Assembly: GCF_030028105.1 (NCBI RefSeq)
Contig: NC_092394.1
Location: 13,927,939 to 13,991,938, forward strand
DNA length: 64,000 bases
From: Mobula birostris
Taxonomy: Eukaryota
Direction of reading: 5' to 3'
Program-made: the position numbers and the translations under genes
The notes under the pieces: generated by a model
Told to the model about the DNA's origin: nothing
Seen by the model: the letters and a program-made list of their open reading frames with translations, nothing else
Database searches by the model: none
Shown: positions 10,830-63,500 of the stretch, in pieces
How positions within the stretch are numbered: the first letter of the stretch is position 1
How the letters are laid out: every line of letters begins with the position of its first letter

Positions 10830-11009
10830 GTGAGTCCCTGACACCGGCCTCCGGCCATGTCCCCGCTCGCTCCGGGATCACGGGCTCTTTGTCGGGATGG
10901 TGGTCCGGAGGATCGATGTACCTCATCCCTCGTCCTCCCGGACCGCTTTCCCCGTGCCGACTTTTATCGGAAAGCTTTGTTTTATCCTGGTGTCTATGAC
11001 AGGATTCTC

Positions 11010-11509
11010 GGACCGGTGCCAATGGGAGGGTTTTCATTGGACAGATTTCAATGGGAGGATTTTCATTGGACCGGTGTCTGTGGGAAGGTTTTCATTGGAC
11101 CGGCTTCTATGGGAGGGTTTTCATTGGACCGGTGTCAGTGGGAGGGTTTTCATTGGACCGGTGTCTGTGGGAGGGTTTTCATTGGACCGGTGTCTGTGGG
11201 AGGGTTTTCATTGGACCGGTGTCTGTGGAGGGTTTTCATTGGACCGGTGTCTGTGGGAGGGTTTTCATTGGACCGGTGTCTGTGGGAGGGTTTTCATTGG
11301 ACCGGTGTCTGTGGGAGGGTTTTCATTGGACCGGTGTCTGTGATAGGGTTTTCATTGGACCGGTGTCTGTGATAGGGTTTTCATTGGACCGGTGTCTGTG
11401 GGAGGGTTTTCATTGGACCGGTGTCTGTGGTAGGGTTTTCATTGGACCGATGTCTGAGGGAGGGTTTTCATTGGACCGGTGTCTGTGGGAGGGTTTCCGT
11501 TGGATCGGT
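11010..11509 (+). repeat. 29-bp minisatellite, about 17 copies, TMEM97 intron 1
   Basis: Unit GGACCGGTGTCTGTGGGAGGGTTTTCATT in head-to-tail copies, homogeneous in the centre and degenerate at the ends. Confidence 0.97.
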
Positions 11510-11512
11510 TCA

Positions 11513-12170
11513 ATACACACAATGTACTGGAGGAGCTCAGCAGGTTAAGCTGATCTTGGATGGGAGTAAACAGTTGAAGTTTCAGGCCAAAGCCCCTAAC
11601 CAGTTTCTTTGGAAGGGTTGTCATTGGGCACCCACACAAAATGTTGAAAGAGTTCAGCAGGCCAGGCAGTATCTATGGGGAGAAATGATCAGATGACATT
11701 TCCAGCAAATGTACCCTATCCAAGATCCACAGACCTAACTGCCTCAGTAGATCCATTGTTTCTATTGCTCCTGTCCCACTGAATGCATCAATTCCAGTTT
11801 GGTTCAGTCTCTTCCCACCTACATCCATGACGTCTCACATGATGCCCATAACTTCAAAGGCTCTTGAGTTCCCTGGCCCTGACCTCCTTATTTTTACCTT
11901 GGACATCCAGTCCCTGTACACTTGCAACCTCTATTTAAAAAGGCCTTTAAGGCCTCCGCTCCTTTCTTGACACCAGACCTAATCAGTTCCCTCAACTCCA
12001 CACTTCTCTGTCTGGTAGAACTGGTCCTCAACCTCAACAACTGCTCTTTCGCCTCCTCCCAGTTTCTAACAGAAGTGTCCTGATGAAGTCTGAGACATCA
12101 TCTGTTGATTTCCCTCCATACACGTCGCCTGAACTACTGAGTTCCTCCAGCATTTTGTGTGCATTGCTCA
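11513..12170 (+). mobile_element. Penelope-like element fragment
   Basis: Degenerate RT segment (IFTLDIQSLYT...ELVLNLNN) at 11.8-12.07 kb with antisense terminal-repeat pieces upstream and a sense one downstream. Confidence 0.7.
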
Positions 12171-12945
12171 AGGTGGCTAGTATTAATGGAATCTGTTGTG
12201 TCAGAGTTTTCATTAGATTCGTTTCTGAGAGCCAGCTCCCTTTGGACCAGTTCTCGAGTTCATGGACCCCCCTGATCTTTGGAGCCTGCTGTTGTGTCCG
12301 TCCTGAGGATTAAACTACAAGACATAGGAGCAGATTAGGTGATTGGGCCCATAGTGTCCATTCCACCATGGCTGATTTATTATCCCTCCCAGCTCCATCT
12401 CCCTGCTTTCACCCTGTGATGTTTGATGCCTTACTAATCAAGAAACTATCAACCTCTGCTTTAAATATACCCAATGACTTGGACTGCACAGTCGTCTGTG
12501 GCAATGAATTCCACAGATCTCCGTCCAAGCTTTATTTTCCTGCCCCTCCCACACCCCATAGTCTCCAAGGAAGCCCCAAACTGCTTATTGAACAGTAAGG
12601 AAACCCAACTCAAAGCCAGGTAACTTCATTATCAACATTTTACAGTAGGCAAACAATTCAACCTAGTGGAATTCTGTTGGCCTAGTGAACCTATCATTTA
12701 AAGTCTGGTGAATAAACAAACTGATTAGGCGTATGGGAATCTGGCGGTCACTGTGAGTGTGACGCTGTTGTCCTACCGCTTGTAATGTACGTCATGTTCA
12801 ACTGGTCCGTGGTAGTAATGATTGTTGAACTTTGGTTTGTTTACGCTAAATATCGACCCAGTCACACTTTGGAAAAACTTTTGAGGCTGAAGAAACTTCT
12901 GCAAGTTTGGAATTTTTAAAAAAAATCTTACATTTCTTTCCCCAG

Positions 12946-16109: not shown

Positions 16110-18060
16110 TTAAAGTCAAAGTCAGAATTAGGTTTAATATCACCAGCATATGTCGTGAAATTTGTTTTCTCTGCAGCAGCAGTGCATTGCAATACATAAT
16201 AATAGGAAAAACATGAATTACAGTGAGACTGTCTCTGTGCGTGCGTGCGTGCGTGTATATATATTAGTTAAATTAAGTAAGTAGTGCAAAAATAGAAATT
16301 TAAAAAGTAGTGAGGTATTGTTCATGGGTTCAAGGCTCATTCAGGAATCGGATGGCAGAGGGGAAGAAGCTGATCCTGAATTGTTGAGTGTGTATCTGCT
16401 TCCCGATGGTAACAATGCAAAGAGGGCATGACCTTATTGTTCTCATTGTACAGGTTAACTATCTTCTATGCTTTTAAACCTGGGGCTACATGTGATAATG
16501 GAAACTTCAGACTACAATCATACCAGCACTCCTTTGTTCACTTAAAATGGGAGACACATATGTTCCTCTTCCACTCTACAATGCTGTAATTCAGCGAGAG
16601 AATTTCATTAAACCTACATTTTCAATAGTAGTTTCTGAAGGGTCGCATTGACATGTGGAATTTGTATCTGGTACAACATTCCAGGGACCTTGAAATAGCT
16701 TTGCATTCAATTAGTGTGTCAACCATTTCGAATAAATGGTTTACTTGAATATAACACAATCTCTAATTTCAGGGTGTAATCAAAATTTAGATATTTTGTT
16801 CCAAGCAGTTCAAAACGTCGACTGTACCTCTTCCTAGAGATGCTGCCTGGCCTGCTGCATTCACCAGCAACTTTTATGTCTGTTGCTTGAAATTCCAGCA
16901 TCTGCAGATTTCCTCATATTTGAGTTCAAAGTTCAAAGTTTTTTTAAATCAGAGTGCATATACGTCACCGTATATAACCCTGAGATTCATTTTCCTGCGG
17001 GCGTGCTCAGCAAATCTATAGAATAGTAACAGGATCAATGAAAGATTAACCTGAGGACAAATTGTGCAAATGCAAATATAAATAAATAATGAGAATGTGA
17101 AATAACTAGATAAGAAGTCCTTAAAGTGGGATCATTGGTTGTGGGAACATCTCAATGGATGGGCAAGTGAGTGAAGTTATCTCCTCTGGTTCAAGAGCCT
17201 GATGATTGAGGGGTAGCAATTGTTCCTGAACCTGATGGTGTGAGTCCTGAGGCTCCTGTGGAGAGGAGTTCCCCAGCTCCTCTCTGATGCTGCACAGTTT
17301 CTTGACATTGACACATCACTGCAGAATTTAAATTTTACTGTCCTCATCTCTAATGATTTTGAACACTTCTCCTTGATTTTCTCCTGACCATCTGACAACC
17401 GTCTGCAATGAAGTATCTCAATCTCTCACTGCACAAGACCATGAGAAAATAGGAGCAAGAGAAGGTTACCAGTCCGTCCATCACAGGCAAAGCCCTCCCC
17501 ACTATTGAGTTCATTTACATGGAGTGCTGCCACAAGAAAGCAGCCCCCATCAACAAACACCCCCTCCATCAAGGCCTTACCTGCTTCTCACTACTACCAT
17601 CAGGCAGGAGGTACAGAAGCCTTAGGTCCCACAGCACCAGGTTCATAATAGTTACTACCCTACAACCACCAGGCTCCTGAGCCAGCATGGGTAACTTCAT
17701 CGGGCACTACTCTGAACTGATTTTACGACCTACAGACTCACTTTCAAGGACTCCTTACAAGTCATGCTCCCAGTGTTTTTTATTTGCAGTTTGCCTTCTT
17801 TCGCACATTGGCTGTTGTTGTTGTCTTTCTGTGTATTCTTTTTTTGTAAATTCTTTTTTCCTGTAAATGCCTGCAAGAAAATGAATCTCAAGGTAGCGTA
17901 TGGCGGCATGACAGAAAAATGAAGGGCTATGTAGGAGGTCAGAGTTAGATAGATCTTATAGTAGGTTGAAAGGTTGGCACAAGATCATGGGCCAAAGGGC
18001 CTATACTGTGCTGTAATGTTCTACATTCTATATACACACTGATAATAAATTTACTTTGAA
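16110..18060. mobile_element. Cluster of Rex1-type 3' fragments in both orientations plus a Penelope terminal piece (about 16810-16915)
   Basis: Recurrent Rex1 tail motifs (ttcctgaacctgatggtg, tgcctgcaagaaaatgaatctc, aataaatttactttgaactttga) shared with other copies in the window. Confidence 0.65.
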
Positions 18061-22204: not shown

Positions 22205-23715
22205 GTTACAAACAGGAGGAAGTCTGCAGGTGCTGGAAATCCAAAGCAACACACACAAGACTGGAGCAACTCAGCAGGCCGGGCAGCGTCTCAGACCCCT
22301 CCTCAGGACTGAGACGGAAGGGGGAGGGCGCAGGGGAAAAAGGCTGGTTGGAAGGTGATAGACAAAGCTAGGTGGGAGGGAAAGGTCAAGGGCTGGAGAA
22401 GAAGGAATTTAATAGCAGAAGAGAGTGGACAATAGGAGAAATGGAAGGAGGAGGGGAATTGGGAGGAAGTAATAGGTAGGTGGCCAAGAGGTTAAGGCAT
22501 TGGACTAGCAACCTGAAGGTCGTGAGTTCAAGCCCCAGCCGAGGCAACGTGTTGTGTCCTTGAGCAAGGCACCTAATCACACATTGCTCTGCGATGACAC
22601 CGGTGCCAAGCTGTATGGGTCCTAATGCCCTTCCCTTGGACAACATCGGTGTCGTGGAGAGGGGAGACTTGCAGCATGGGCAATTGCCGGTCCTCCATAC
22701 AACCTTGCCCAGGCCTGCGCCCTGGAGAGTGAAGACTTTCCAGGCGCAGATCCATGGTCTCGCAAGACTAACAGATGCCTTTACTAATAGGCGGGTGAAA
22801 AAAAGTAAAAGGTTAGAACGAGGGATAGAGAAAAGGGGGTTGGGGAGTGAATTTGTTTACTGAAAGGAGAAATCTATATTCATGCTTCAGGCTGGAGTCT
22901 ACCCAGTTGGAATATAAGGTGTTGTTCCTCAACCCTGAGGGTGGCCTCATCATGGAACAAGTGAACGCTGTGAACTGACGTGTCGGAACAGGAATGGGAT
23001 TAGGAATTTCAATGTTTGGCCAGTGGGAAATCCTGCTTATGTCAGGAAGTGCAGAGGTGCTCGACAAAGCAGTCCTCTAATTTACGACGGGTCTCACCGA
23101 TCGGGAGCACCGGACACAAAAGACGACTCCAGCAGATTCGCAGGTGAAGTGCTGCCTCACCTGGAAGGACTGGTTGGGGACCTGAATGGAGGCGAGGGAG
23201 GAGGTGTAGCATTTAGGCCACTTGCAAGGGTAAGTACCTGGAGGGAGATTAGTGGGCAGGGACGAATGGACAAGGGAATTGCAGAGGGAGCGATCCCTGT
23301 GGAAAGTGGAGGCGGGGGGAAGTAAAGATGTGCTTAGTGGTAAAATCCCTTTGGAGATGGCAGACATTGCGGAGGATAATGTGTTGCAGAGTCTGGAGGG
23401 GTGGTAGATAAGGACAAGAGGAACGCCTATCACTATTGAGGTGGCAGGAAGATGGGGTGAGCGTGGATGTCTGGGAAATGGAGGCGGTGCGGGTGAGGGC
23501 AGCATCAATAGTAGAGGGAGGGAAACCCCATTCTTTAAAGAAAGAGGACACCTCCTGGAATGGAAAGCCACATCCTGAGAACTGATGCAGTAGGGGCAAA
23601 GAAACTGAGGGAAAAATAGCATTTTTGTAGGAGATAGGGAGGGAAGAGGTATAGTCAAGATACCTGTGGGCATCAGTAGGTTTATAAAAGACGTCAGTTG
23701 ACAGTTTGTCTCCAC
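22205..23715 (-). mobile_element. Penelope-like element 3' part (RT thumb plus GIY-YIG region) interrupted by a SINE
   Basis: TDVFYKPTDAHRYLDYTSS and FQVRQHFTCESAGVVFCVRCSR motifs; terminal repeat near 22210-22310. Confidence 0.85.
22480..22784 (+). mobile_element. tRNA-derived SINE, same family as 18118-18419, opposite orientation
   Basis: Near-identical body; TAATAGG on both flanks. Confidence 0.88.
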
Positions 23716-30559: not shown

Positions 30560-31510
30560 ATATGATTGCAAAATGTAAACTGCTTGAGGTACCCGACAGG
30601 TCAGGGAGTCTCTGTGGAGGCAGAGGAATGGTTGATGTTTTGGGTTGAGACCCAGCATCAGGACTGAGAGTCTTGAGGGGAAATCGCCAGTGTAATGGAG
30701 TAAGAGGGAGGACTGAGGCAAGGTAGAACCAGGTAAGGGGGGGGGGTGGTGAGGGAGGGTGACAGGCAGATGGAACCAGGTGTGGGAGAGGGGAAAGGGA
30801 CCAAGTGTGAGACAGCAGCCAATGGCTGATAGGTGGAGACAATATGAGCAGAGGGAAAACAGGGTATGAACAGCTTTGTGAACTGAAGGGCCTGTATTGT
30901 GCTGTATGTTTTCTATGTAACATTGAACTTCTCAGTTTCAAGCATCCGATTTCATGTTCCTTCCTCCTGCCCAAGTTGTTTCACTCCAGCTTTTATCAAG
31001 TACCTCCCCACCTCCAGCTTTCCTTACCCAGTTTCCTTCTCCCTCACCTGTTTCCACCTGCCTATCACCGAACACGTCTCTTATCCCTTCCACAACTGGT
31101 TCCATCTGCCCATCATCTCCCTCTTAACATTGCAGCATCTGCCTCTGTCCACCTTCTCCCTTCCCTCCCCCATACCTGGCTCCATCTGTCTGCCACCCCC
31201 TCCCCTCCTTACCTAATTCCACCTACCACCCTCACCCTGTTTTTTTATCTTATCTGCATCGAAATATCACTACCAGCCACTTTCCATCTCCACGCCTGCC
31301 CCTCCTGTCTCCATCTGCCTATCATCCCCCTTCTCATCAACCAGACCCTCCTCACAGGTCTTTATTCTGGCTACCGCCCCCCTACAGTTTCATTTGGGAT
31401 GAAGGGTCCCATATCCCTCTGCTTTCATAGATGCTGCCTGACCTGTTGAGTTCCTCTAAGTATTTTTTTTTAAGCTCCAGCTTTCAACTTCTTCAGTATC
31501 TTGTGTCTCT
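30560..31510. mobile_element. Decayed Penelope-derived termini in inverted arrangement with C-rich low-complexity filler
   Basis: Antisense terminal repeat at 30.58-30.67 kb; sense GATGCTGCCTGACCTG.TGAGTTCC at 31.43 kb. Confidence 0.55.
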
Positions 31511-37460: not shown

Positions 37461-37787
37461 CTTACCCATTCTCTTTTCCTCACCTCCCTCTGCTGCCCAT
37501 CAACCTTCCCTTTCTCCCACAGTCCACTCACTTCTCCTATCAGATTCCTTCTTCTTCATTTCTTTATCTTTTCCACCTATCACCTCCCAGCTTCTCACTT
37601 CATCTCCCCTGCCCCATCCACCTTCTCCCCCCCTCACCTGGTCTCACCTATCACTTTCTAGTTTCTACTCCTTCCCCTCCTCCACCACCTTATTCTGGTT
37701 TCCACGTCCTTCCTTTCCAGTCCTGATGAAGGGTGTCAGCCCAAAACGTCGGCTCTTTATTCCTGACTCCTCCAGAATTTTGTGTCT
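37461..37787 (+). mobile_element. Penelope-derived 3' terminal fragment with 18-bp TSD
   Basis: C/T-rich body, decayed hammerhead motif at 37719-37754; TSD ATTATGAAAACTGGAATT, right copy split by the RTE insertion. Confidence 0.75.
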
Positions 37788-41729: not shown

Positions 41730-42877
41730 CTGAAAAAAAAATTAAAAGATTTGATGCAAAAGTAAACATTATAAGTTGCACGTACTTTCCACAATTATGT
41801 TGCAGTCTACTTGCTCATGCTGGAATTGTTTACACAAGTCCTCTAATCAGTTCTACATCCAGACCACAGTACAAAACTTCCCTTAACAAAATCATTAACA
41901 AGAATTTCATGACACTATGATAAACGTAATCCATCACCTCACCGTTCTCAGCTTGGTTGCAGCCTTTTACGTGACTGATCACAAATCTTCCTCCAATGCA
42001 CCCGGATATCATATTTGATAGGTTTTGTCATTATACATCCAATTATAGCCAAGGAATGACAGATATATATCTATTTGTACCCATATATTACTTTTGCTGA
42101 AGAATGGCCAACGTCCTACAGCCCACTCACATTCTTCCATGACAACGTTCCAAAACACAGTCCACATTTATACCCTGATGTCATCCAGCTATACCTCATC
42201 CTCACTTCACTTGTTCCCTCCATTCTTTACAAACCATTAGTTAGCTTGTCTCATTTCCACAGTCAATAAGCTATAGTTTCCTTCCACATCAAGCATCGAG
42301 ATATTGTTTTGGTCACTGACACAAGCTTTATTCCCTGGCATCAAATTTCCTCCCTTTTCAGGTAGCTATCTGAAACTGAACAGACCATTTGCAGCCTTGG
42401 TATCATCTTTGGCCCATTTGTGGCTTTTGCCTTGAATGCAATTGATTCACCTCATCCTAACTTGGACAGCACAGCAGCATAGTGGCTACCATAACACTTT
42501 ACAGCACCAGCAACCAGGGTTCAATTCCCGCCGCTGTCTGTAAGGAGTTTGTATGTTCTCCCCATGACTGCATGGATTTCCTCTGGGTGCTCTGGTTTCC
42601 TCCCACATTCCAAAGATATGTGGGTTAGGGTTAGTAAATTGTGGGTACACTACGCTAGTGCCAGAAGTGTGCCAACTTTGCAGGCTTCCTCCGCCATTCT
42701 CGGGCTGTGTTGGTAGTTGAGGCAGACAATACATTTCTCTGGACGTTTCTAGTAACAAAGCTAATCTAATCTAAAATAATAACCTTTTGGAATCACTTTC
42801 CAATGCTAGGCCAGTTTCCCTTCCCCCCACCCCACCTTTAAGACAAACCTTTAAAACCTACATCATTGACCAATCTA

Positions 42878-43305
42878 ACAACAGGAATTCTGCAGATGCT
42901 GGAAATTCAAGCAACACACATAAAAGTTGCTGGTGAACGCAGCAGGCCAGGCAGCATCTCTAGGAAGAGGTGCAGTCGACGTTTCAGGCCGAGACCCTTC
43001 GTCAGGACTAACTGAAGGAAGAGTGAGTAAGGGATTTGAAAGTTGGAGGGGGAGGGGGAGATCCAAAATGATAGGAGAAGACAGGAGGGGGAAGGATGGA
43101 GTCAAGAGCTGGGCAGGTGATAGGCAAAGGGGATACGAGAGGATCATGGGACAGGAGGTCCAGGAAGAAAGACCGGGGGAGGGGGGGGAGACCCAGAGGA
43201 TGGGCAAGGGGTATATTCAGAGGGACAGAGGGAGAAAAAGGAGAGTGAGGAACGTGTGTATAAAAATAAGTAACAGATGGGGTACGAGGGGGAGGTGGGG
43301 CATTA
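42878..43305 (-). mobile_element. Penelope-derived 3' terminal fragment carrying a hammerhead motif
   Basis: Well-preserved terminal repeat; hammerhead core at 42974-43009. Confidence 0.8.
42974..43009 (-). ncRNA. Minimal type I hammerhead ribozyme motif
   Basis: AGUC-CUGACGA-A-GGGU-CUCG-GCCU-GAAA-C-GUC/GACU: stem I AGUC:GACU, core boxes present, palindromic ACGU stem III as in Penelope hammerheads. Activity not shown. Confidence 0.7.
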
Positions 43306-44592: not shown

Positions 44593-46898
44593 ACAGTGAT
44601 TATGGTCGACTAATAAATTATCGTGATTTGGTTTTATATATAGTGTTTTAATCGAATTCTTAAGTTGGAATCAAAGACAATAATAATCTAATCTGAGACG
44701 ACCATCTAATATTACCATTCTATAATCTAAATTCTTGTGTACTTTAAAATCTACAAGAAACTTACTCAAAATGTCAAGTATAATTGTATGCAATTCATCA
44801 CACATCCTTTTCATCAGTACTTCAGAATTAAGCAGCTAAGTAATTGGGATCTTTTTTTAATTGTACTGTTAATGATACCTTAGTACTGAATCCTTGATAA
44901 GTTACAGCAGGAGGAAAAGAATTACCATTTCTTAAGAGTGACATTCCAAAAAATTTGAATTCAGTTTCTGAAAGATTTTGGAGCCTCCCTTCCTGTTTAG
45001 TGTAGGCTTGCAATTTTTTTCAAACCACATACAAAAAGTTAATTTTTCACCTTATAGAGATACATAGAGAGATCCTTTTAGGGACAAGTCTAACACCTGC
45101 TGAGACCTTATAAAGGTTTACATTGTGGTTGTCTAGACACCACCCCATACAATCAAACCACATCCTTCCTATATTGTACTACTGTTACTGAAGCGAGTGA
45201 AACACAAAGGATGTAGTTGATTCTCAACCTGAGTTTGTGCAGTTGATCTTAAAAGTTAACTTTAAAATATGGAAAACCCAAATTTCATTAGGAATTCATA
45301 CAAAGATTTACTTCTAATACATTGAAAATATTTGTGGAGCAAGTAGCAATTTTACTGAACATGAATTATTACTGAAGTCACAAAGGTTTTAGAGATATAC
45401 ATTTCTAAATCTATCAGATCCCCTGCACTCCTTTTATTAAAAATCTATTGTTTACACAGTTAGTTTAAATGGACTGATCATAATCCACAGTGTTATAAAT
45501 GCAGATTTATTCCCTATTTTCTTTTTTTTATTATTTCAATTACAACCATGAACTCGTTTGTCTCCTCTTGCTTAATTAATTTCATTCATTTTAGAAGGTG
45601 TAAAAGTAAGTCTATCTCCAAACCTCGTCGAATTCCATTTTGTATGGAACTTTGTCATCTTGATTGATGATTAAAATAGCAGAAGGCTGCTTTTGAAACC
45701 TTGTCAGGATGAGACAGACAGCGCTGGGTAAACTTTATAAATCAGCACCATAGTAGTGTTCAGGTTAGTGTGATGCTATTACAGTTCAAGGCATTGGAGT
45801 ACCATTCCAGCTCCTCTGTAAGCAAGTTCGTACGTTCCTTCCCGTGTGCGGGATTTCCTTCGATGCTCCAATTTCCTCCCAGTCCTAAGATGTACTAGTT
45901 GTAGGTTAATTGGTCATTGTAAAAAATTGTTCTGTGATTAGGCTACAGTTAGTTAGGCTGCTGGGATGTGTGGTTCGGTGGGCCAGGAGAGCCTGTTCCA
46001 CACTGTATCTCTAAGTAAAAGAAAAATAAAATGTGGGAAACAGCCGATTAACTTCCTTGGAGAGGGTGGATCAGAGGAAAAGGTGTAAAGGTATCGGTAA
46101 CTCTACCATTCTACAATTTACAGAAGCTCAACATCATTGAAAATGTCACCTACATGTTATTCCACACAGCAGTCCAAACACTTTAATAACTTTCTCCACT
46201 AGGTCTCTGTTAACAATGTTTTAAAACTCCTTAACTGCAGAAATTTCTTCAAAATCCCTATGTTGTAACTGAAAGGGTAGAATATTTGAGCTTAGTCCCA
46301 AAGTGAACCTTTTTTCTTAATTAATGACTGTTTAGGAACTCTAGATTCTTCTGAGATCAGTTTATTTCAACTTCTTCACTGCAACCAACTGCTATGTATT
46401 CAGCCACATGGGTTTCTAATTATCACACCTCTTGCAACCTTTCATAAAACCTACCTGTATGACCAGGCTTTTATTAACCCATATTACCTCATCCTTGGCT
46501 CAGCGCCATATTTTGTCTGCATATGACTGAGAAATATGACAAGATTACCGCAGTAAAACTTCCATCATGCATACTAATTGAGATAACAAAAGATAAGAGG
46601 AGCCTCACAGAAAGGAGCTGGAAGAAGTCGGCGAGCCAGGCAGCATCTATGAAGGGAAATGGTTAGTCAGCTCTTCATCAGGACTTTTGTGAAATGCTGC
46701 CTGGCTTGCTGAGTTCTTCCAGCACCTTCGTGTGTTGCTCCATATTTTCAGCATCTCCAGTCTAGTGTGTCTCCAAAGGATAATAAGGTAGTATCTCTCT
46801 AAGAGGATTCTCTGAGAATCCTCATACTGCTGCTGTATGAGGAGGGTAACTCTCTCTGCTACAATCCTTACACAACACTGAAGTTAGCAATTGAGTGA

Positions 46899-47104
46899 AC
46901 ACAAAATAATCTGCAGATGCTGGGGTCAAAGCAACACTCACAATACGCTGGAGGAACTCAGCAGGTCGGGCAGCATCTGTGGAAAAGATCGGTCAATGTT
47001 TCTGGTCGGAACCCTCCGTCCTGACGAAGGGTTCCGGCCCGAAACGTCAACCGATCTTTTCCACGGATGCTGCCCGACCTGCTGAGTTCCTCCAGCATGT
47101 TGTC
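46899..47104 (+). mobile_element. Palindromic Penelope-derived hairpin element, copy 1
   Basis: 84-nt inverted arms (46937-47020 / 47023-47106); hammerhead core 47021-47048; AGCAAWTGAGTGA at 46886-46898 and 47105-47117. Confidence 0.85.
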
Positions 47105-48427
47105 AGCAAATGAGTGAGGAGTCTGTATTTCCGATCCAAAGGACTTCCTACAGTTCTATGGATGGAACTCTGTTCTGACAGTGACTGATGAAATTAGCCA
47201 TACTTTCTCTCAAGTATGAATCACGAGAAAATTAAATTAGGCTTCATTTACTGGCATTCTGATCTTTGGAGTTTTCTATACCAGGATATACAAGCTATTC
47301 TTAAACTATATTCAAGACTAAAATAAGAGATTTTGGGATAAGCCAGGAAAGCATAAAAATTCAGCACACAAAATGGAAACTAAGCATAGTTACCTAGTCT
47401 GGTTTCAACTTTAGCACTCCAAAAAGCTACAGCATTCTTTCTGCACTCTGCTTAAAGAATTTCCTCCAGTTGAATGCTTTTTTACTGCCAAAAACATCTT
47501 ACGTTGTTCAAGGTCAGATGTAGCTCGCCATCTACTATTCAAGCAGTTGCAGTCCAAGCATCTGAGCCAAAATCCCTGACAGCAGGGCAAGTGAAGTCTA
47601 CCTCATTGATTCCATCATGGCTATTTGGATTTATTGAGTACGCCCACAAGAAAACACATTCCAGGACTGATAATACATTTACTCTGAACTTTGGAGTGTG
47701 GTGCTACCAGAGGAACCTCCTTCGGAATGAGGTATTGAACACATGTGTTTTATCCAAGGATCGCCACCTTGTGGAGAGGTTTGTGAGTTCCTGAGAGCAA
47801 CACCATCTGGAGTTTAGCCACCTAGCTCCTTGTAGAATCAACCATGGCATCAGGGGGGAGGTTCCAGACAAAATTTGATCCAACCAAGATCTCAACGGCA
47901 GAGCTGGTGGAAGACGATGTCACAGCACAGCAGCAGTGAAGGGTCCCCAGTCGTCTTGCATTCTATGCCACTGGACCCCCACGCCGATTTGTTAAGCGGC
48001 CGCCCGTACATCAGCCTCCCCATGTTTAACAAAGTCACACACAGCCGTTCTCCATTAAATGAATCCACACTACCAAACGGGATCCTGGATTGGTCTCTAC
48101 AGCCACCTGAGGACCAACCTTAGAACATCACACCCAATTAAAATGATTGCACTATTACTAAGCTCCATTGGGGCATAAAGGATGGAGACCACAATAAGAC
48201 GGAGTCTGGAGGAAAATAAAACAAGCTGCAGGAGGAACTCAGCGGATCTGTAGCGGGAAACGACCAATCGACCCTTCATCTGGACTGGCAGACCTGAAAT
48301 GACAATTACCCATGTTTCTTTACAGATGCTGCCTGACATCCTAGTTCCCCCAGCAACTCATTTATTGATAGGGCACAAGAGATCCTACATAAGTATTTAC
48401 AAGAATAACAAGAGAAGATAGTCAATA

Positions 48428-48564
48428 CAGGTCGACCTTCACTAATCCAACTACCTGTAATCCAGCACCGATTATGTTTAATGTGATCCTTATGTAATTC
48501 GGCATTCCCACTAATCCGGCACTTCTCAGGTCCCAATGGTGCCGGATTAGTGAAGGTCGACCTG
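48428..48564. mobile_element. 137-bp MITE (Tc1/mariner-pogo/Tigger type)
   Basis: Perfect 21-bp TIR CAGGTCGACCTTCACTAATCC, TA on both sides, internal TAATCC.GCAC subterminal repeats. Confidence 0.9.
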
Positions 48565-48769
48565 TACCAATGTTTATCTTTCAATCATCATTATCCCAAC
48601 GAGTGCTGATAAGGTCCCTACAGAGCTATCCCCTCCTTCCTCACTGATCCAACAACACCCTTGGGATGTCCTGAGGTAGTCCCACAAAGATGTGCACCTC
48701 TCCACTCTAAAGCGGTAACCCGCCTTCCATATGGTAACCAGTAACGGCCCGCTCTTCCCCAATACCTAC

Positions 48770-48890
48770 TTTCCACAAAGTCCCGGCACTCTTCCTTCAG
48801 CTCTATCGTGCTTTGGGCCACCTCCGGGTCCAGGACCCTCAGTTTGTTCAGCTCGTCAAAGTGAAGCCCGGCCTCCCCCAGCGCTTCCAT
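48770..48890 (-). CDS. IFT20: IFT20 (intraflagellar transport 20) coding exon 1
   Basis: [40 protein letters not shown] matches the IFT20 N-terminus; GTAGGT donor on - strand from 48769; 121 nt. Confidence 0.96.
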
Positions 48891-49370
48891 CGCCCCCGGT
48901 GAAACTCTGCCACCAGCCTCCGGCGACCGCTGCCACGGCGACGACGGGGCCTCGAATCCCGGCTGACGTCACTCGCCGCGCATGCGCAACCCCGCCTATT
49001 GTGACCCCAATTTTATTTGCACTTTACTATCCGCTCGTCACGGGCTCGGGGAAAGTGGCAGACACATTTTCGACACTGACTTTGCTCCAACAATTTAATA
49101 CTTTACTCCCAGAAAAAAGAACACCAACAACCCTAAACTTGTCTTTCAACAGCTCGTTACAAAGCACTATTTTAGTTAAATAAAATCCTTCTCATTGAAC
49201 CTTATTCCTCACGGAGGGAAGTATTTTTTCCTGGAAATCTCCTCCACAAAGGTAAATAATTGAAGGCGCTTGAGGGGAGTTGTACGCATGCGCGATTTGG
49301 CAGCCAAGGGCGGGAGGATGCGCGGCGCGCAGGCGCAGTGACGGCTGCTATAAAGGTCGTTCCGGAGCGG
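48891..49370. promoter_or_regulatory. Bidirectional CpG-island promoter of IFT20 and TNFAIP1
   Basis: CRE TGACGTCA 48964-48971; NRF1-type GCGCATGCGCA 48978-48988, CGCATGCGCG 49285-49294 and GCGCAGGCGCA near 49328; GC box GGGCGG near 49308; TATAAA 49349-49354. Confidence 0.85.
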
Positions 49371-49435
49371 CGGGCCGTGACTATGGTGGTGCCGTCGGAG
49401 GGGGCCGGAGCTCCCAGTGGGAGGTGAAGGAGCCG
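49370..49435 (+). other. TNFAIP1: TNFAIP1 putative non-coding exon 1 (start approximate)
   Basis: GC-rich stretch downstream of TATAAA (49349) ending at a strong CCG|GTGAGT donor (49436); head-to-head with IFT20 as in mammals. TSS is inferred. Confidence 0.7.
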
Positions 49436-51406
49436 GTGAGTGGGCAGCGCCGACCGCAGGCTCGGTCCTGCTCCAGGTATGGGGGCTTGGGCCTGCTGAG
49501 GACGATTCAGTTAGGTGGATGGGCTGACTGGTGCAATACTTGAGGGGTGAAACGCGTCACCCACGCATGTTGCTTCACAGGCAGGCTTACCTTTCTGTAG
49601 CGGCTTTAACATCTCTCCCAGGCTCTTATAACCCGGTTCTGATATGTGCTTCACATTTTGTGTACAGTGAAATCCCAGAAACGACGGTTTGCCAATCACC
49701 AGTTGATGTTTTGTTTTGCTTTGGGTTTGGGGATAAGTAGGAGATCTTCCCACTCTTCATAATATTAATATTTTTGCCTGAACTTTTACCTGTGGAAAAA
49801 AAAACTAGTTCTCAGATGAAAAGAAACTCTTCAGCCTTGCTTTAATTCCTCAGGGCAGCACCAGTGTGAAGGTAGACATTTGTGCTCGAGTTCACTTTGT
49901 GCCTTTAAACAACACACAAATGCTGGAGGGGAATCAGCAAATCAGGAAGCATCTATGGAGGGAAATTAACAGTCGATGTTTAGAGCGGAGGTCCTGATGT
50001 TGCTCGAGATTTTCAGCATCTGCAGAATTTCTTCTACACTTAAAAACAACTTTTTGACTTTGCAAGAGAACAGCTGCTGCTTAAAACAAGAGATCTACTG
50101 AGTATCTGAAGCAATAATACAGATGCATTTAAGGGGAGACTGGGTATGTAGAATGGAAAAGTGAGCGATGAGTTATGTTGATGGATTTAAATATAGAAAA
50201 GTAGAATAGGCTACAGGATTGGTTAGAATGAAAGGACAATTACTGGATATCTAACATTCTCCTATTTCCAATCCATTGCAGCCAGAAATTACTCTATTTA
50301 GAACAGTTGAAAGGTAGTAATTCATTATTTTCAATTGGAAATTACTTGTTAAATGCAGAATGAACCTGAATAATTCAAGGTTGGATGAATCAACAGGCCA
50401 ATATTACATTCTCCAACAAAGGACCTAATTATTGCACAGTTAGAGACAGACTTGGCTAATGGATAGACTATAAGGAGTAATGGTTCTGAACTTGTAGACC
50501 TTGGATTGCAAGCATTTCTGCTTCATCACTAACAAAAAAATTCTTGATTTTTTTTTATTATTGGCTCTGCAGGATGTCTCTAAGATTGTTGAAATTTAAC
50601 TACTGTTTTGAGTCGACTGACTAGCAGAGATCATAGAGTTGAGATAAATTTGTTGCTTTAGTTTTGGCCATCAGAAGCTAATGGAAATGCCATAAAGGTC
50701 AGTAATTGGGCCCTTGGCTCCCAGTGGTGTATAAGCCATCGATGTACTCACATCTCCATCGTCCTCTTAAGTCGATGGTATGTTTTGAGGTCATCAATGC
50801 TTCTGCAATCCATTGCATCCACTGTACAGGGGATTGGCCTATACAACTTCTCCAGAGCCCTGTTGGCTGACCTTGCCTGTTTCCACTTCTCATGACAGGG
50901 ATGTAGGGTTGGACTTTGAGAGGCAAAGATCAGTACAGGGGTTTCAATCTGTATTAAGGACTTGGATGCATGGTGCACTTAGCTGATGGAGCTGCAGCCT
51001 CACAGCACCAGATATGCACGTTCAGTCCAAATCTTGGGTGCCATATATTCTTCATGCGAGGATTTTCTTCTGACTTCCTCTTGTATCCCAGCGTAGTGTA
51101 GATTGGTATGTTAACCGACCATTTTAAATTTCCCCTGGTGTTAGGTGAGTAGTAGAACCTGATGTGGGTGTTGATGAGAATGTGGAGAGAACGAAAAAGT
51201 AATGTCTAATTAGAAATGGATGATAGGTGGTCAGCACGGATTTGGTGGTCTGAAAGGCTTGTTCCCTGCTGTATGACTCAATGAAGAGACGAAGTGTACT
51301 GCAGGCATGTTTTCTGATTTAAAAAGTTATGTTGTGAAAATAAATTGTTAGCAAGTTTTGATGGTCATGGCCAGAGACAAGGATCCGATTGATTAACGCA
51401 CAGTTA

Positions 51407-51679: not shown

Positions 51680-53703
51680 TTATCGCACAGTTACAACAAG
51701 TAATTGGGAAGGCTGATGGAATGTTGGACTTTATTGTAAGGATATAAAATATGTAATAGGTAAGTTTTAATATAACTCTACAAGGCAGTGGTGGGACTAC
51801 ACCTGGAGAGCTATGTATTGTTTTGGTCTCTTTTTAAAGAATAATGTTCGCCATTTTAAAATTTTCACTATGGTTATTCCTGGGATCAAGTTTAAAACAT
51901 GAAGAGAGGTTGAGCAGAGGTTTTTGGGACTATAGTCATTTGAACTTATGAAAGTGACATCTCATTAAGGCAAGCAAGATTGAGAAGGTTTGACAGAGTG
52001 GGCATTAAGATGTTCCCCCTGGTCGGGTTACCTCCAACTAGATGACATTGATTCAGAGAAGAAGTTACTCATTTAAGGAGATGAGGAATTTCTTGGACTA
52101 CTTGGAGTGGAGATTCTCAGACATTTGAACTACAATGCACTTGAGCAGTAGAGGAAAAGTGCTATTGAAAACGGATTTGGATCAACCATTAACTTGAATA
52201 TTGCTGCAAACTTGAGGGGCAGATTGACCTTCTCCTGCTTACTCTAGGTATAAGATGACCAAACTCTAAACTCTACTGTTAGAATTGTCATCTTCCAAAT
52301 GAGAGATTAAACTGGACTCTACTAAGCTCTAATACAAAAATCCCATTGTTCCTGACTCATCTACACCCATCCCATTTCAATCATTCCTTATTATATGGGT
52401 AACATAATACTGTTCCTTCTGTGAAGAATTTAGTAATTTTAGTGCAACTGGCACAAACTTTGGGTAGATAGTATTTGAAATGGTGATACTTGCATGCAAG
52501 TTCTCAAGTTTTGGATTGATGTTTGGGAAATGCAGCATGTCTATCAAAATGAAAATTCTGAAGGTTTGCCAAGTGTAACAAAATGGACAGTTCATTTCAT
52601 GGGTGGATTAATGTTTAAAGGCCTGAGGGGATAATGTTTTGCTGAATGCGTAAGCTAAGAATGTAAAGTATCTGATTCAATGTGATTCAGATCCAGCGTG
52701 ATCCTTTAGTATGATGTTTGGATTATCTTGTTTTCAGAATCATTTATTATCATTGATAATATGACATGAAATGTTCTGCAGCACAGTATAGTGCAAAGAC
52801 AAATCTATAAATTACGAAGTTCGAAAAGTTTGCTCTTATTTTCCCTCAAGATTCATTCCAAGTATCAATAAATTCAAATTTGTATGGTGTTAATGTGCCA
52901 GGATGCTTCACAGGTTCGTAGTCAGACAGAAAGTAACATCCAACGTGTGGGTGATGTGGGAAGAAAGATCAAAAGTTTGACAAAGATAAAGGTTTTAGGA
53001 ATTAGAAGGTTGGGAGAGTATACTTTAGGCATATGACTATACTTGTAGTAAAATCTCTCAAATTAACAAATTTCATGACACATGCCAGTTAGAATAAACC
53101 TGGTTCTGATTCTAATGATTTGGTTCAAAGGAGGAGCATACATGAAGCAAAATTAGGAGATAAGGGAAAGATGCATACATGGAGGGCATTGGAGATGGGA
53201 CATATAAGGCCACATTCAAAGTCCATTGTGCATTTTTGCAATTTTGTTAGATTGAGTCACTATGTGTTTTCTATTGCTCGAGGGGTTCTGTGTAGAGCTA
53301 TTCATTACACTTAGCACATAGCAAAAATCTGATCTAAACTAGGAGGCTTTTGAAAAATTCTTTTAACCCACTGATTTCTACCACCAGTGAACTGATTTTT
53401 TTTGAATGCAGTGCAACAGGATGAAATGAGGCATAGATCAAATGGAGAGCTATTTTTCCCCTAGGTGGAAATAGCTAATACAAGGGGGATTTTAAAGTGA
53501 TTGAAGGAAAGTATAGGGGGATGTCAGAGGTAAAAAGCTTTTTACACAGTAGGTGTGTAGAAGGCCTTGTTAGGGGTGATGGTAGAGACAAATACATAAG
53601 GGACATTTAAGCGGCTCTTGAATAGACACATAGATGAAAGAAAATTTGGGACAGAAGAGTTAGATTGGTCTTAGAGTAGGTTATAAGGTCAGAACTTTGT
53701 ACT

Positions 53704-53910
53704 CACAAAATAATCTGCAGATGCTGGGGTCAAAGCAACACTCACAACACGCTGGAGGAACTCAGCAGGCCGGGCAGCATCCGTGGAAAAGATCGGTTGA
53801 CGTTTTGGGCTGGAGCCCTTCGTCCTGACGAAGGGTTCTGGCCCGAAACGTCGACCGATCTTTTCCACGGTTGCTGCCTGGCCTGCTGAGTTCCTCCAGC
53901 GTGTTGTGAG
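53704..53910 (+). mobile_element. Palindromic Penelope-derived hairpin element, copy 2
   Basis: 84-nt inverted arms (53741-53824 / 53827-53910); hammerhead 53822-53855; perfect 14-bp TSD CAGAACTTTGTACT at 53690 and 53911, within a CR1 tail. Confidence 0.9.
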
Positions 53911-55654
53911 CAGAACTTTGTACTGTAGTGTTCTGTGTTCTATGTAACACTGCATGTCATATGAGTGAACATGGCTTCCAACCATTACAATTGCAGGGGA
54001 CTTATTTTTGTTAGGGACAATGGAAGTTCCTCATCTGTAACTTCCAGAATTGGTGCACATCAGCTGATGCTTGTAGTTTGTTATTCATTTGAAGTGGGCC
54101 AGTCGGTCAGTAAGCATTACTAATTGTGCAGAAAAAGAATCTCGGTTGGTATATGGTGACATAAATGTACTTTGAAATTAAATTCTTTGAATTTGAAGGA
54201 CTTGCTGGGATGCTAGACGAACTTGTTACTGAGAGTAAAGATCAGTGAATATAACATTCCTCTTCCTGTTTGCCTTTCTAGGAAGTGCTTTGCTCTTTAA
54301 ATTAGCCACCATGCATCTCAGTCAGGAAGATGATAATATCAAAGCATCCAAGTTCCTACAATGGTATTCGGAAATGTGTGCCAGCTCTGTAGCTGAGGGT
54401 GGGAATGTGGACAAGTGTGCATCTGGAGTGCAGTGGAAGTGGTGCCATGTGTGAGGTCAGGGTCAGGAACATGAAACTGGGTGGAGATGGGTGGGAAAGA
54501 CAGAAACAAGGAAGGAAGCAATGGTTATAATGGGATTCGAAGGTACTCAAGCCAGCAGCAGTGTTCTATGATAACCTTGGATAACTTGCCAAGAAATTTT
54601 CTAGTATTTAAAAAAAAAATGCCCATCATCCATATAACAACTGCTTCAGCGTTTTGGTACAGATGTATGCCATTTCATCAATTTTGCCCTCTTTGAAGCA
54701 TCTGGTTTTCAAATAGGACTTGCCATATCTTCACAGATTGTGACCCTTCAGATTACTATACTGTATCAAAGTGACAACTTAATGATAGATGGGGTGCTCC
54801 CACTGCTACGTAGGAATCAGACCTTTTCTTAAAATGTGGGCAATTCCATGACTGGCAGAGACATTGGACTTCCAACATGGACCATGTCTCGGTATATTTA
54901 AAGCAGAGGTTGTCAGGTACTTAGCAGGAACATCAAAGGTTATGAGGAGAAGGTAGGAGGACGGGGTTAGAAGGAAAATAAATCGGCAATGATTGAATGG
55001 CAGAGCAGACTCTCCCATATAACCCCCCATTTTTTTCTTTCATTCATGAGCCTATCTAAGAGTGTCTTAAATGTCTGTAATATATCTGCCACTACCACCA
55101 CTCCTGGCAAGGAGTTCCATGCACCCACCACCCACTGAGTGCTGGAAATGATGAGTACTCCATTGACCAAGGATGCTGCATCCTAGCTGTCCAGATATAC
55201 AAGCCTGAACAGTGCGTTATGGAGAGCAAGCTGTTGCCCATGTAGCAAGCTCCCCATCTCCATGCTTCTGATGAACCCAAAGGAATGGTCTGCATTGAAC
55301 TCCAATTGCCTTAGGAACTTCAACTCTGGATTTTTACCTCTGGGTTTACTTCCAATCCTTCTCCATGAGTAGGTATAGCCGCAAGGCAGCGGAGGTTTGA
55401 GATCAGAGTTTTCCTTCTAAGTGAGCTACCAACCATGACTGACGAGTCCTATCTGCCCAAAGTGACTGGTTTTAGGGTGCCACTGTTGCCCTTCTCCTGC
55501 CAGTAGAAATGGTTCTGCCGGGTTTAGTAGCTAAGCCGCACATGAAGGCCAGGAGCTGGGCTTGGTTGTCAGAGGCTATTTGAGCTGCATCCCACTGGGA
55601 GCCTTTAATAGGTAGTGGAAGCTTATCCCTATCACCACCCCCGGCTATAACACT

Positions 55655-57281: not shown

Positions 57282-58050
57282 CAAGTGAAACACAGCAAAA
57301 CCTGGAACTCCAATTTCAATAGTGAAGCAAGAGGCTAGCTCAGGAAATCTGATAGACCTGGCACACAGCAAGGTTCAGGGAATGAATAGATAGCACTTTG
57401 TTTTGGTCACAAGTGGATTTGAGCTTTAAGTGCTGGCATTGTGCTGTGAAGAATGAGTGAGTGGTCTGGGCTTGTGCTCTCTGACATTTAGAAGGATGCA
57501 AGATTACTGCATTGATGCACGTGATTCTGGAAGGGGCTCTACAATGATAAATACTTAAAGATGTTTTGTGTAGAATTAGAGGACAATTTCTCAGATTAAG
57601 TTGTCTCCTTGAGAGATGATAAATTTCTTGTGTGGTTATGAATCTTTAGAATTCTTCAAATCCGACCAGTCTGAGTACAGTGTATTGAAGACTGAGATAG
57701 ATTCTTACTCCATAATGGAGTCAATACCAGGTTGAAGCCAAAGATCAGAATGGCAGAACAACTTGGGGATTTCTGGCTTATGCCTGACCCTATCACTTGG
57801 GTGCTTTGGGGTTATTTTAAAAGCGCATAATATAGTCTTGCAAACACGTTTTTGAATGGGTGCAAAATGTTGTTTATCATCTTTTAATGATCATTGCTAA
57901 AATTTTCCTTATTTTCAGTGGTGCAAAGGTTATGAACACCAGTGAACGTGACCAGACCTTGACTCGTTTTTGTCTGGCTCGCACACACCAACCACGGAGG
58001 GACGGATTAAGCCGACTGTGTGCAGAGTCACCATTTATCTTCAGAGAGAG

Positions 58051-58264
58051 ATGTCTGGGGATACCTGCTTAACATCACCTTGTCCTCCCTCTGGAGCCAA
58101 ACCCAAGGCCATCAGCTTTAAAGGAGGAAGCATGGGGAACAAGTACATCAGGTTAAATGTTGGAGGCTCGCTGTACTATACCACTGTTCAGATTTTAACC
58201 AGGCACGACACCATGCTGAAGGCAATGTTTAGTGGAAGAATGGAAGTACTGACTGACAAAGAAG
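58051..58264 (+). CDS. TNFAIP1: TNFAIP1 (BACURD2, KCTD-type BTB adaptor) first coding exon; gene continues beyond the window
   Basis: [71 protein letters not shown](G); the MSGDTCL start and adjacency to IFT20 favour TNFAIP1 over KCTD10/13. Acceptor ttttcag ends 57918; donor GTAAAT at 58265. Confidence 0.93.
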
Positions 58265-59253
58265 GTAAATGCATTTTTATGGATTGTTTTAGAAGGCTTT
58301 TAACTATTGGTATTTGTCCAGCACCCTTCACAGTTTTGGGGTATGTCGAAGTGCCTCGATCAATTAAAGTACTTTTGATGTGTTATCAAAGGGAAACCAG
58401 TCTGTGCAGAAATTTCCCACAGACATTGGTCATCACCATGATTGTAGCAGAGGAGAGTGTGGTAATGTATTAAAATGTGAGCGAGGGGTAGAAGGCCTTT
58501 TAATCCTTGTTTTTCTAATATGGTGGATTCTTGGAAAATTGTCTTCCCCAGTGTATGAAATGATGCAAGCGAAAATTATTGGAAATTAATGCAGGAGGTG
58601 GTTTTAAAAACTTTGTGGTTTTTAAATGGAAGTTTAGTGCATGCTATAAGATAAAGCTGCAGTCTGTCAATTCCCGTGCGCTTCGGGTCAGGCCAAGTAA
58701 CGGGGGTGGCTCCACTGCCACTTCCAGCTGCCGGGGGCCCGGGCTGTCGATTGGGTCAGGCCCTGAAGTTGACACTTAATCCCGGAGGGCCGGGCTCCTG
58801 GCTGAAACAAGTCCTTAAACTGAGTCACAGTTGCGGAGGCCTCCGCTCCAGCCGAGCCTCGGGCTCAATTTCCGAGGTCGGCAGCGGAGGCCTCACTTCC
58901 AGCAGCTGTGGATGGCCACCAACGGGACTTTACGGTGGTCATTTCAGGGAAGTGTCTGGGGCACCTTGAGGTCTCTGCCGTCACTTCTGTGTGGTCGTCT
59001 GCTCCGGAGAGGTACCGGTCGGAATGGGCTGTGTCTCCGAGCCCTCCGGCACGGTAGCAGACCGCGAGTCTTCGGGAACGTGGTGGACCTCGTTGGTCGG
59101 GTTCAGGTGCGGTCTGGAGTTTAAGAAGCAGTTCTGGCGCAGTGGTCTCCAGCTGGGTCAGTAGCTTCGCCAGGGTGTTGTTAATCTTGATTTTGCTAGA
59201 TTGGAGCTTTAGAAGGGTTTTCTCAGGTATAGGATAGTGGAGAGGGCAGTTTG

Positions 59254-61141: not shown

Positions 61142-61289
61142 CTTGGAAAAAGGGCTTTAAAAGTTTTTTGCAGTTATTGATTCCTCCAAGATATTAATGT
61201 ACTGATTAATTCTCAGAACAGTCCAAAATGTTAGTGTGGTAATGGCCATTTACACAAGATGGACTTGAGTTTAAAAACAGTTATGTCTC

Positions 61290-62020
61290 TACAAGCGGCC
61301 AAGTGCTACACTTGCCCCTACACCTCCTCCCTCACCTCCATTCAGAGCCTCAGACTGTCCATCAAGGTGAGACAACACATCACCTGCAAATCTGCTGGGG
61401 TCGTCTATTGTGTCCGGTGCCCCCTGTGCAGCCTCTACGTTGGTGAGACCCCTCATAAATTAGGGGACCACTTCGTTGAGCACCTCTGTTCTATCCGTGG
61501 AACTTCCCAGTGGCCAAACATTTTAATTACGATTCCTGTTCCAGCATGTTGGTCCATGGCCACCTCTTCTGCCAAAATGAGGCTACCCTCAAGGTGGATA
61601 AGCAACACTTTATTTTCTGTTTGGGTAACCTCTGACCTGGTGTCAATTTCTCCTTCCGATAAGCAAATTCATCTCTGCACCGCCCCCCACATTCCCTAGT
61701 CTGACCTTTTTACTATTTCTCACCTGGGTACACCACACCCCCGCTTCCCTTTCTTCTATGGTTCACTCTCCTCTCCTATCAAATTCTTTTTTATCCAGCC
61801 TTTCACCTTTCCCACCCATCTGGCTATCACCTTCCAGCTAGTCTCTTTGCCTAACCACCTCCCTCCACCCACCCCCCCCCCCCCAGCCGCCTTGTTATTC
61901 TGGCATCTTCCCCCTTCTCGGTCTTGAAGAAGGGTCTTGGCCTGAAACATCAACAGTTTACTCTTTTCGATAGATGCTACCTGACTTCCTGAGTTTCTCC
62001 AACGTTTTATGTGTGTAGCT
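61290..62020 (+). mobile_element. Penelope-like element 3' part (GIY-YIG endonuclease remnant plus terminal repeat)
   Basis: KVRQHITCKSAGVVYCVRCPLCSLYVGET..KLGDHFVEHL; decayed hammerhead near 61921-61955. Confidence 0.85.
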
Positions 62021-62559
62021 GTGTCTTATTTTTGCATGGATTGGGAGGTTTAAGGAGTAATCATGGAATTATTTGGCACTTAGAGTGAGAAAATAGTTAT
62101 AAGGTCATTAAATCATCATACAAAGATTCTAGACCCATACAATTATGCAAACTTATCAGTTATAATATTACAGTGATCAGTCATTGTTTGCAGTCTATGG
62201 AAACCTGTGCACAGATACATAATGATACAAATTATATGGATTGCCGTGATTGGAGGAATGATAAGGTAGGAACCAATCAAAACAACAGTGCTAAATTGTG
62301 AAATGTATGTGAAGAGCCAAATGCCATGCCTCACCATGGAAACTGGAAAATAGATGCACCATATCACATTTAGTTGCAGTTTTTGGGTTAAAACTTGAGG
62401 GAGGGAAGGTTTTAAATATCCAGAGGTGAGGTCCTAAGGAGGTTGTTGTCCTGTTCTGGGCCTTAGTCTGACCATTTTTCATCCACTTAATCATAAAGTT
62501 GTGTGAAAAAGGAGCCAATCCATTAGTTTTCACATCACAGCAGTGAAATGCTATCTCAT

Positions 62560-62945: not shown

Positions 62946-63500
62946 AGTTCATTTCTATGTTCATTGGTCTGGTGGTATGTACTTATCTTAACTCAAATTA
63001 ATTTAACAAACCTGCCAGTTTAATTCTTTGCTCTTTATGAACATTATCCTAAAGTCTGCTCCATTAAAATTTACCTCTGCTCATGTGATCTGCTTCCATC
63101 TTACAACCATGCTTATTTGATAAACAGCTGTCCCTCAGTATTCCCTGCCTAGTTTATTTATTTTTATTTTAGAAATAAAGCATACTAACAGGCCCTTCCA
63201 GCCCAACAAGCTCCCACCACCCAATTACACCCTTATGACCTATTAACTTATTAACTCATTTGCTTTTGGATTATGGGAGGAAACCAGAGCACCAGGAGAA
63301 AATCCACATGGTCATGGGGGAATGTGCAAATTCTGTACAGAAGGCGGCAGAATTGAACCCAGGTCGCCAGCACTGTAATAATAGCTGCGAGTTAAACACT
63401 GACAATTAATGTAGCACACTCAAAATGCTGGAGAAACTCAGCAGGTCAGGTGACATCTGTGTAGAGGAGTAGAGTCAGATGATGTAGCATATAAGAAATA

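Follow-up and report, generated by a model that had tools for sequence, protein, structure and literature searches.

We analysed a 64,000-nt stretch of the Mobula birostris genome, hereafter the window (assembly GCF_030028105.1, contig NC_092394.1, positions 13,927,939 to 13,991,938 of the forward strand), and within it a short hairpin-forming insert at 53690-53924. The insert lies upstream of an exon encoding a BTB domain (57952-58470, + strand) and beyond IFT20, whose exons are on the - strand. The two genes are arranged head to head, with a CpG-rich stretch between them (48500-49500); from its peptide and its IFT20 neighbour, we take the BTB gene to be TNFAIP1. The CpG-rich stretch contains a TATA-like word at about 49340 and, at about 49478, a candidate donor. 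Judging from a candidate non-coding exon and this donor, the insert would be located in intron 1 of the BTB gene.

The initial annotation of the window, made from the sequence alone, had described a 207-bp insert with a 14-bp target-site duplication (TSD), a 37-nt leader and two 84-nt inverted arms around a CT loop. All of these parts were verified in the sequence (Table 1), as was the count of seven differences between the arms, of which six are G-U pairs on the + strand and one is U-U. The + strand RNA of the insert folds at -182 kcal/mol (z -21.8; 0/200 shuffles as good), and the minus strand at -165.9 (z -19.4). The initial annotation had also noted that the core is on the pre-mRNA strand of the host gene, but a link to that strand is not supported: the second copy in the window, at 46900, has its core on the + strand, opposite IFT20, and arm mismatches of four G-U and four A-C. 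We saw no sign that the 53690-53924 locus has a function of its own, and this copy was probably dead on arrival.

Around the point where the arms meet, we read a minimal type I hammerhead: helix I GUC (53822-53824), CUGACGA (53825-53831), an extra A (53832), helix II (53833-53844), GAAA (53845-53848), GUC (53850-53852) and GAC (53853-53855). The motif has the CUGANGA...GAAA...UH core, the extra base after A9 and a palindromic 15.2-16.2, and it is present on the + strand only, as first described, since CUGANGA is absent from the minus strand at the pivot. A hammerhead was not recognised by Rfam, either at the gathering score in the window or at E<=10 in 53600-54000; the only Rfam matches were generic hairpins below the gathering score. 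Across 20 related copies, 93% of the cells of helices I and II were paired vs 13-51% when slid, but with 0 double-sided changes and no excess over shuffles; comparison of these copies is therefore compatible with the helix structure but does not prove it. The motif is like the minimal type I hammerheads described for metazoan PLEs (Penelope-like elements; PMC4209133) in its core, the extra base between 9 and 10.1, G10.1-C11.1 and the palindromic ACGU that replaces helix III, and that paper also notes opposite-strand pairs 100-700 bp apart. It differs in helix I, with 3 bp in the present copy against 4-5 bp in the families of that paper, in a helix II of 4 bp and in an opposite arm without C3-U4, and its self-cleavage is putative. 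The proposal that the antisense arm sequesters the ribozyme stood in part: the hairpin is predicted to block the ribozyme fold (the computed pairing probability of helix II is 0.52-0.57 for the right arm on its own but ~1e-16 for the whole insert), yet this looks like a by-product and not a design, because helix I is cut to 3 bp and minimal hammerheads of metazoan PLEs cleave poorly, dimers included (PMC4209133).

Table 1. Features of the insert and related repeats in the window (PLE, Penelope-like element; TSD, target-site duplication).
Feature	Position	Strand	Remark
Left TSD, 14 bp, CAGAACTTTGTACT	53690..53703	.	repeated at 53911..53924
PLE tail, 37 nt, 3' extension of left arm	53704..53740	-	reads on minus strand
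Left arm, 84 nt, tail-bearing terminal-repeat copy	53741..53824	-	5'-truncated within hammerhead core, without C3-U4
Pivot: GTC common to both arms (3-nt microhomology) and CT loop	53822..53826	+	here, at the 5' edge of helix I, the right-hand copy begins
Minimal type I hammerhead motif	53822..53855	+	expected to be cleaved after 53852; helix I of just 3 bp in this copy
CT loop, 2 nt, between arms	53825-53826		
Right arm, 84 nt, tail-less terminal-repeat copy	53827..53910	+	
Right TSD, 14 bp, CAGAACTTTGTACT	53911..53924	.	
Second copy, same structure, 91% identical	46900..47106	+	IFT20 intron; core on strand opposite IFT20
Older related repeat ends, 70-93% alike	3911-4045, 11635-11701, 12127-12200, 22223-22290, 31430-31463, 37718-37755, 46629-46723, 49915-50030, 63415-63461		
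Tandem array, 29-bp unit	10923-11584		

The tail 38-mer (53704-53741) has 2197 exact matches in the 4.0-Gb genome, and a 29-mer of the arm has 6913. As our main sample we took the first 100 listed of the 2197 tail matches, all on contig C1 and unselected for arms (the tail-selected set), and we give positions as d, the distance from the tail end in nt. Many of these copies continue from the tail through the hammerhead into a pyrimidine-rich 3' region, and then into coding sequence for GIY-YIG and a reverse transcriptase (RT). On the other side, past the tail, the sequence enters the start of the open reading frame (ORF), giving repeat-tail-ORF tandems (L185, L190, L201, L205). Because tail and repeat run into parent coding sequence and tandems, we read each arm as the 3' end of the element and the extension first called a leader, which is indeed present, as the PLE tail read backwards.

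A 343-aa fragment of the parent has 88 homologues, most with RVT_1 and PF26215 and some with GIY-YIG, the best named match being a shark protein (68%). Counting against this assignment, Pfam returned nothing at E<=0.001 for three parent fragments, and at E<=1 only weak RVT_1 (E=0.017) and GIY-YIG (E=0.0012) matches for two of the three; a PDB sequence search with parent fragments gave no match. Copies L127 and L141 have a C-x3-C-x2-C linker (CKRKCYTC) between RT and GIY-YIG. A CX2-5CxxC linker between RT and endonuclease (EN) is described as the mark of Neptune, and also of Nematis (PMC8557442); that of the putatively Neptune-type parent fits either. The parent thus bears out the Penelope-like origin, that of a retroelement and not a DNA transposon, suggested by the initial annotation. 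We also found the other traits of EN-containing (EN+) PLEs: the RT followed by a C-terminal GIY-YIG, a partial tandem of the pseudo-long terminal repeat (pLTR) type before the ORF, and an inverted 5'-truncated copy with a one-sided 30-40 bp tail and a TSD. Complex insertions of EN+ PLEs are described with inverted truncated copies and a 30-40 bp tail on one side (PMC8557442, PMC3846280), and the present insert resembles them in its head-to-head repeats, single tail, TSD, RT-then-GIY-YIG parent and partial tandems. It differs in that both copies are cut to the last ~125 nt, so that the whole insertion is a hairpin. The insert is one of many short head-to-head PLE fragments, with a structure of a known kind, and not a new element.

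[quoted passage not shown] Three of them (L179, L186, L194) have two direct hammerheads ~300 nt apart, a layout where dimeric cleavage could work, and are retrozyme-like candidates. Like the insert itself, non-LTR retrozymes (bioRxiv 10.64898/2026.07.22.740005) are non-coding, PLE-derived and equipped with a type I hammerhead; they are, however, described as direct tandems with at least two complete motifs, while the insert is inverted and has a single complete core, and so is not one of them.

Hairpins of this kind are common and heterogeneous. In the tail-selected set, 55/100 loci are inversions with a resolvable second arm, and the 5' ends of their arms range from d39 to beyond d2000. A TSD of at least 10 nt (one mismatch allowed) was found in 51/55 inversions vs 0/165 mismatched-flank controls, with TSD lengths of 8-18. 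Only 1/55 shares the exact pivot of the present copy. The 20-mer around this pivot has 189 exact matches genome-wide, and of the first 30 of these loci, classified by eye, two belong to the present family and 28 to two sister families; the core-bearing arm had the tail in 19 of them and the opposite arm in nine, the last two being tandems, and shared arm lengths ran from 9 to 105 nt. Most exact-pivot hairpins come from a sister PLE family with a 26-base motif that has 8362 pattern matches; copies of this family are also found in the window, at 16811-16923 and 42874-43011. Because the pivot recurs in three families with the tail on either arm, it arises repeatedly and is not inherited from one master, most simply through GTC/GAC microhomology. 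These counts do not support the non-autonomous, MITE-looking family with a fixed pivot of the initial annotation (MITE, miniature inverted-repeat transposable element), which had itself named random variation of the pivot as evidence against that family. Pivots do vary, but not at random, as ends pile up at helix I. We are highly confident in the PLE origin of the insert and in the formation of its hairpin de novo at insertion.

The G-U pairs had been seen as a retained feature, but there is no bias across the family: over the 55 inversions we counted 112 G-U vs 132 A-C mismatches on the tail-first strand (p=0.22), single copies skewing either way (e.g. 0:7). Compared by eye with the majority sequence of the family, five of the six G-U pairs of the present copy are C>T changes at CpG, and the sixth is an A>G change. 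These comparisons identify the wobbles as CpG decay.

The relation between the two arms suggests how such hairpins are made. The second arm ends within 5 nt of the tail end in 0/55 inversions and at d30-38 in 39/55. Among 30 arm-selected loci, 15 were inversions; 14 of these had a single full tail and the remaining one a partial tail, and none had two. Arms agree in length class (two short arms in 33, two long arms in 14 and one of each in eight; p=3e-7 over the 55 inversions) and in a non-CpG variant at d87 (36/2/0/7, p=8e-7), and because of this agreement both would come from the same template source at insertion. The arms are unlikely to have been homogenised after insertion, for most CpG changes arose in each arm independently. 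Four seemingly solo copies (L038, L054, L084, L128) have an 8-15 nt inverted mini-arm ending at d30-39, and because of them the second start site may be used beyond the 55/100 loci. In three other inversions (L063, L118, L121) the second segment covers sequence upstream of the first, like in classical L1 twin priming.

We think it likely that each hairpin is a single insertion, made of two target-primed complementary DNAs (cDNAs) on opposite staggered nicks, their joint corresponding to a defined 5' end of the RNA, located at helix I. Reverse transcription would start internally at two sites, the tail end and a point ~30-38 nt inside, one for each DNA strand. If it started at the repeat copy on the 5' end of the RNA, both cDNAs would run off after no more than 127 nt, and their 3' ends would anneal via the GTC/GAC microhomology, producing the GTC-CT-GAC pivot; sequestration of the ribozyme and G-U pairs would be by-products. 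A biochemical parallel exists in Anolis, where the PLE protein Poseidon PAc is reported to cut and extend both strands in vitro, with two internal start sites bounding the tail, to be a predicted dimer and to use uncleaved RNA as its main substrate (PMC11167929). The two adjacent RT starts bounding the tail, the cutting and extension of both strands and the uncleaved RNA are shared features, although Poseidon is of another clade, and in the work as available the inverted insertions are not derived and the RNA 5' end is not mapped. In L1 twin or dual priming (PMC2837659), too, two primed cDNAs flanked by a TSD are joined head to head, and the joints have microhomology or short inserts. The L1 halves cover different parts of the RNA and the PLE arms the same part, from which it follows that one RNA region was read twice or that two like RNAs were used.

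An alternative, derived from an idea in PMC3846280, is snap-back self-priming, in which the GTC-AG-GAC end of the cDNA would fold back and serve as its own primer, the resulting hairpin being opened by the endonuclease where the tail begins. The pivot is indeed a 3-bp mini-hairpin on the cDNA strand, and such copying accounts for the concordance of the arms. The tail is on the core-bearing arm in 19/28 resolved exact-pivot loci, and this 19:9 bias, which counts against two separately primed cDNAs, leaves room for snap-back in part of the copies. Nevertheless, in 27/55 inversions the tail-less arm is >10 nt longer at its 5' end than the tailed arm, which is impossible for a copy of the tailed cDNA and excludes snap-back for those loci. 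In the present copy and in 9/28 loci the tail is on the truncated arm and a later loop flip would be required, and 21/55 junctions have inserts of 1-10 nt. We consider snap-back unlikely as the general explanation.

The distribution of arm 5' ends carries the argument for a defined RNA end. Over 155 ends, the rate per 10 nt was 0.12 at d100-109, 0.19 at d110-119 and 0.33 at d120-129, falling to 0.015-0.04 from d130 to d199. At d120-129, 32/98 arms end, vs 1/66 at d130-139; 20/87 end at d126-128, and the commonest single position, with 11 ends, is d126, where helix I has its first base. Junctions at this edge also tend to have an extra base. Genome-wide, the exact d103-126 core is followed by C in 108 cases, A or G in 139, T and then not G in 132, and TG in 2620. 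From the 100 listed among the 132 T+not-G junctions we dropped 43 read-through variants by eye and examined the other 57, all d127 junctions, one of which belongs to a sister-family locus. The TSD or the partner arm explained 11 (C 4, T 3, A 4), and 30 were untemplated, with a first base in the cDNA sense of C in 24, T in five and A in one, C being G in the RNA sense. At other junctions with inserts, untemplated C was present in 3/30 (p=6e-8 vs 24/30), and in the tail-selected set it was found in 6/7 at d126-127. The same check in the sister family gave C 8 and T 4 among the matches listed (by eye), too few for a replication and partly microhomology. Untemplated G at full-length 5' ends of L1 and SVA, which the present ends resemble, has been attributed to copying of the cap (PMC3287187).

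These ends may therefore mark a capped transcription start at the 5' edge of the hammerhead, one uncleaved RNA region being read twice by a dimeric enzyme to give paired strong-stop cDNAs that join into a hairpin; from sequence comparison we hold this tentatively, at close to even chances. Transcription would begin at the A just before helix I (d127), and the RNA would be capped and not self-cleaved. The initiator consensus is YYANWYY, and the upstream variants TTCAGTCC and TTAGTCC match it with the A at d127, the CTACAGTCC variant doing so incompletely. In D. virilis, Penelope is described as having an internal promoter (PMC2377424). The present family also has a TATAAA word facing antisense at d150. 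Two loci (L226, L227) are direct tandems joined at helix I, and in one of them an extra G precedes the d127 A, which is what a template jump starting from the 5' end of the RNA should leave.

Several observations weigh against a capped start. The 40 arm ends at d100-119 need trimming or stalling too; 16/57 d127 junctions were left without assignment, and some of the inserts scored as untemplated resemble local template switches (L257, L260). The copy at 53690-53924 itself has no extra G, and the extra C, instead of reflecting a cap, could have been added without a template wherever a cDNA runs off. Finally, of the 18 loci whose ORF is preceded by a hammerhead-bearing repeat, only one (L205) starts at d127-128 (by eye; several are near-identical duplicates). 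The passages on PLE complex insertions in PMC8557442 and PMC3846280 describe no hotspot of ends at helix I with an extra G. In the open-access literature we found no description of twin priming in PLEs, nor of their hammerheads as sites of a cap mark or a transcription start, though these may be known.

Twin priming could also be combined with a hotspot that is not due to a transcription start. The RT might stall at the fold of the hammerhead, or helix I might be the position of a 3' splice site, as an intron of D. virilis is reported to end there (PMC4209133). The rate of ends climbs over the whole motif (d100-129), 66/87 arms reaching d126 pass d130, and a pyrimidine tract and CAG immediately upstream of helix I (L141:591-660 and most long copies) look like a 3' splice site. 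But the ends stop sharply at the far (5') edge of helix I, while a stalled RT is expected to stop at the 3' foot of a helix. The untemplated G is moreover specific to d126-127, and no shared spliced exon upstream of helix I was seen among 100 listed matches of each of the three junction classes (C, A/G, T+not-G). We regard stalling or splicing as an improbable source of the hotspot.

The remaining explanations fare worse. One of them, in line with the initial annotation, is a non-autonomous fold-back retroelement that would have a master of its own, be propagated as one unit and keep its ribozyme silent by design. Each of the 30 best matches to the whole unit is a hairpin whose pivot lies close to the core and whose flanks resemble a TSD, the exact pivot occurs 189 times, and the ribozyme fold is predicted to be blocked in the hairpin. 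However, these 30 matches were selected by likeness to the query, so we left them out of the statistics, and tail-selected copies vary. A fixed junction and fixed ends in one lineage, the mark of a family propagated as a unit, were not found: the pivot is shared by several families and the tail may be at one side of it or the other, G-U pairs show no bias, helix I is cut to 3 bp, and the outer end is the 3' end of ordinary non-inverted copies. We consider this reading already largely refuted and its probability very low. It is still harder to believe that the template was cut by its own hammerhead and that the pivot reflects self-cleavage. A complete minimal core is conserved across the PLE families compared, but the distribution of ends refutes such cleavage, as just 2/140 arms end at d94-97, the start of a self-cleaved template. 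The core, upstream of the cut, is yet retained, and uncleaved RNA is the main substrate described in PMC11167929. A MITE, that is, a class II DNA transposon, is refuted and has practically no chance of being right: the insert is short, hairpin-shaped and flanked by a duplication, but its inverted repeats are not terminal on both sides, its TSDs are not of fixed length, and its sequence is the 3' end of an RT-GIY-YIG element.

Elsewhere in the window, at 61235-62023, a GIY-YIG-like frame on the - strand lies beside a hammerhead-bearing arm on the + strand, probably another, older inverted PLE insertion. Older related repeat ends and a tandem array are listed in Table 1.

How PLEs make inverted insertions and what their hammerhead does are presented as open questions in PMC3846280, PMC8557442 and PMC11167929. 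The present PLE family offers thousands of natural insertion products, and the capped-start reading predicts that capped transcripts begin with the A preceding helix I and that the template is not cut at the ribozyme site. If true, it ties the tail, the inverted repeats and the position of the ribozyme to one mechanism, and argues against hammerhead processing and antisense self-priming alike. From 33/100 sampled loci and 2197 exact tails, we estimate roughly at least 700 short near-perfect hairpins of this subfamily, a lower bound; they could supply intronic double-stranded RNA, by analogy with inverted Alus. The fold-back point of such fragments likely marks the start of the RNA of the element, and would help to test how PLEs are copied.

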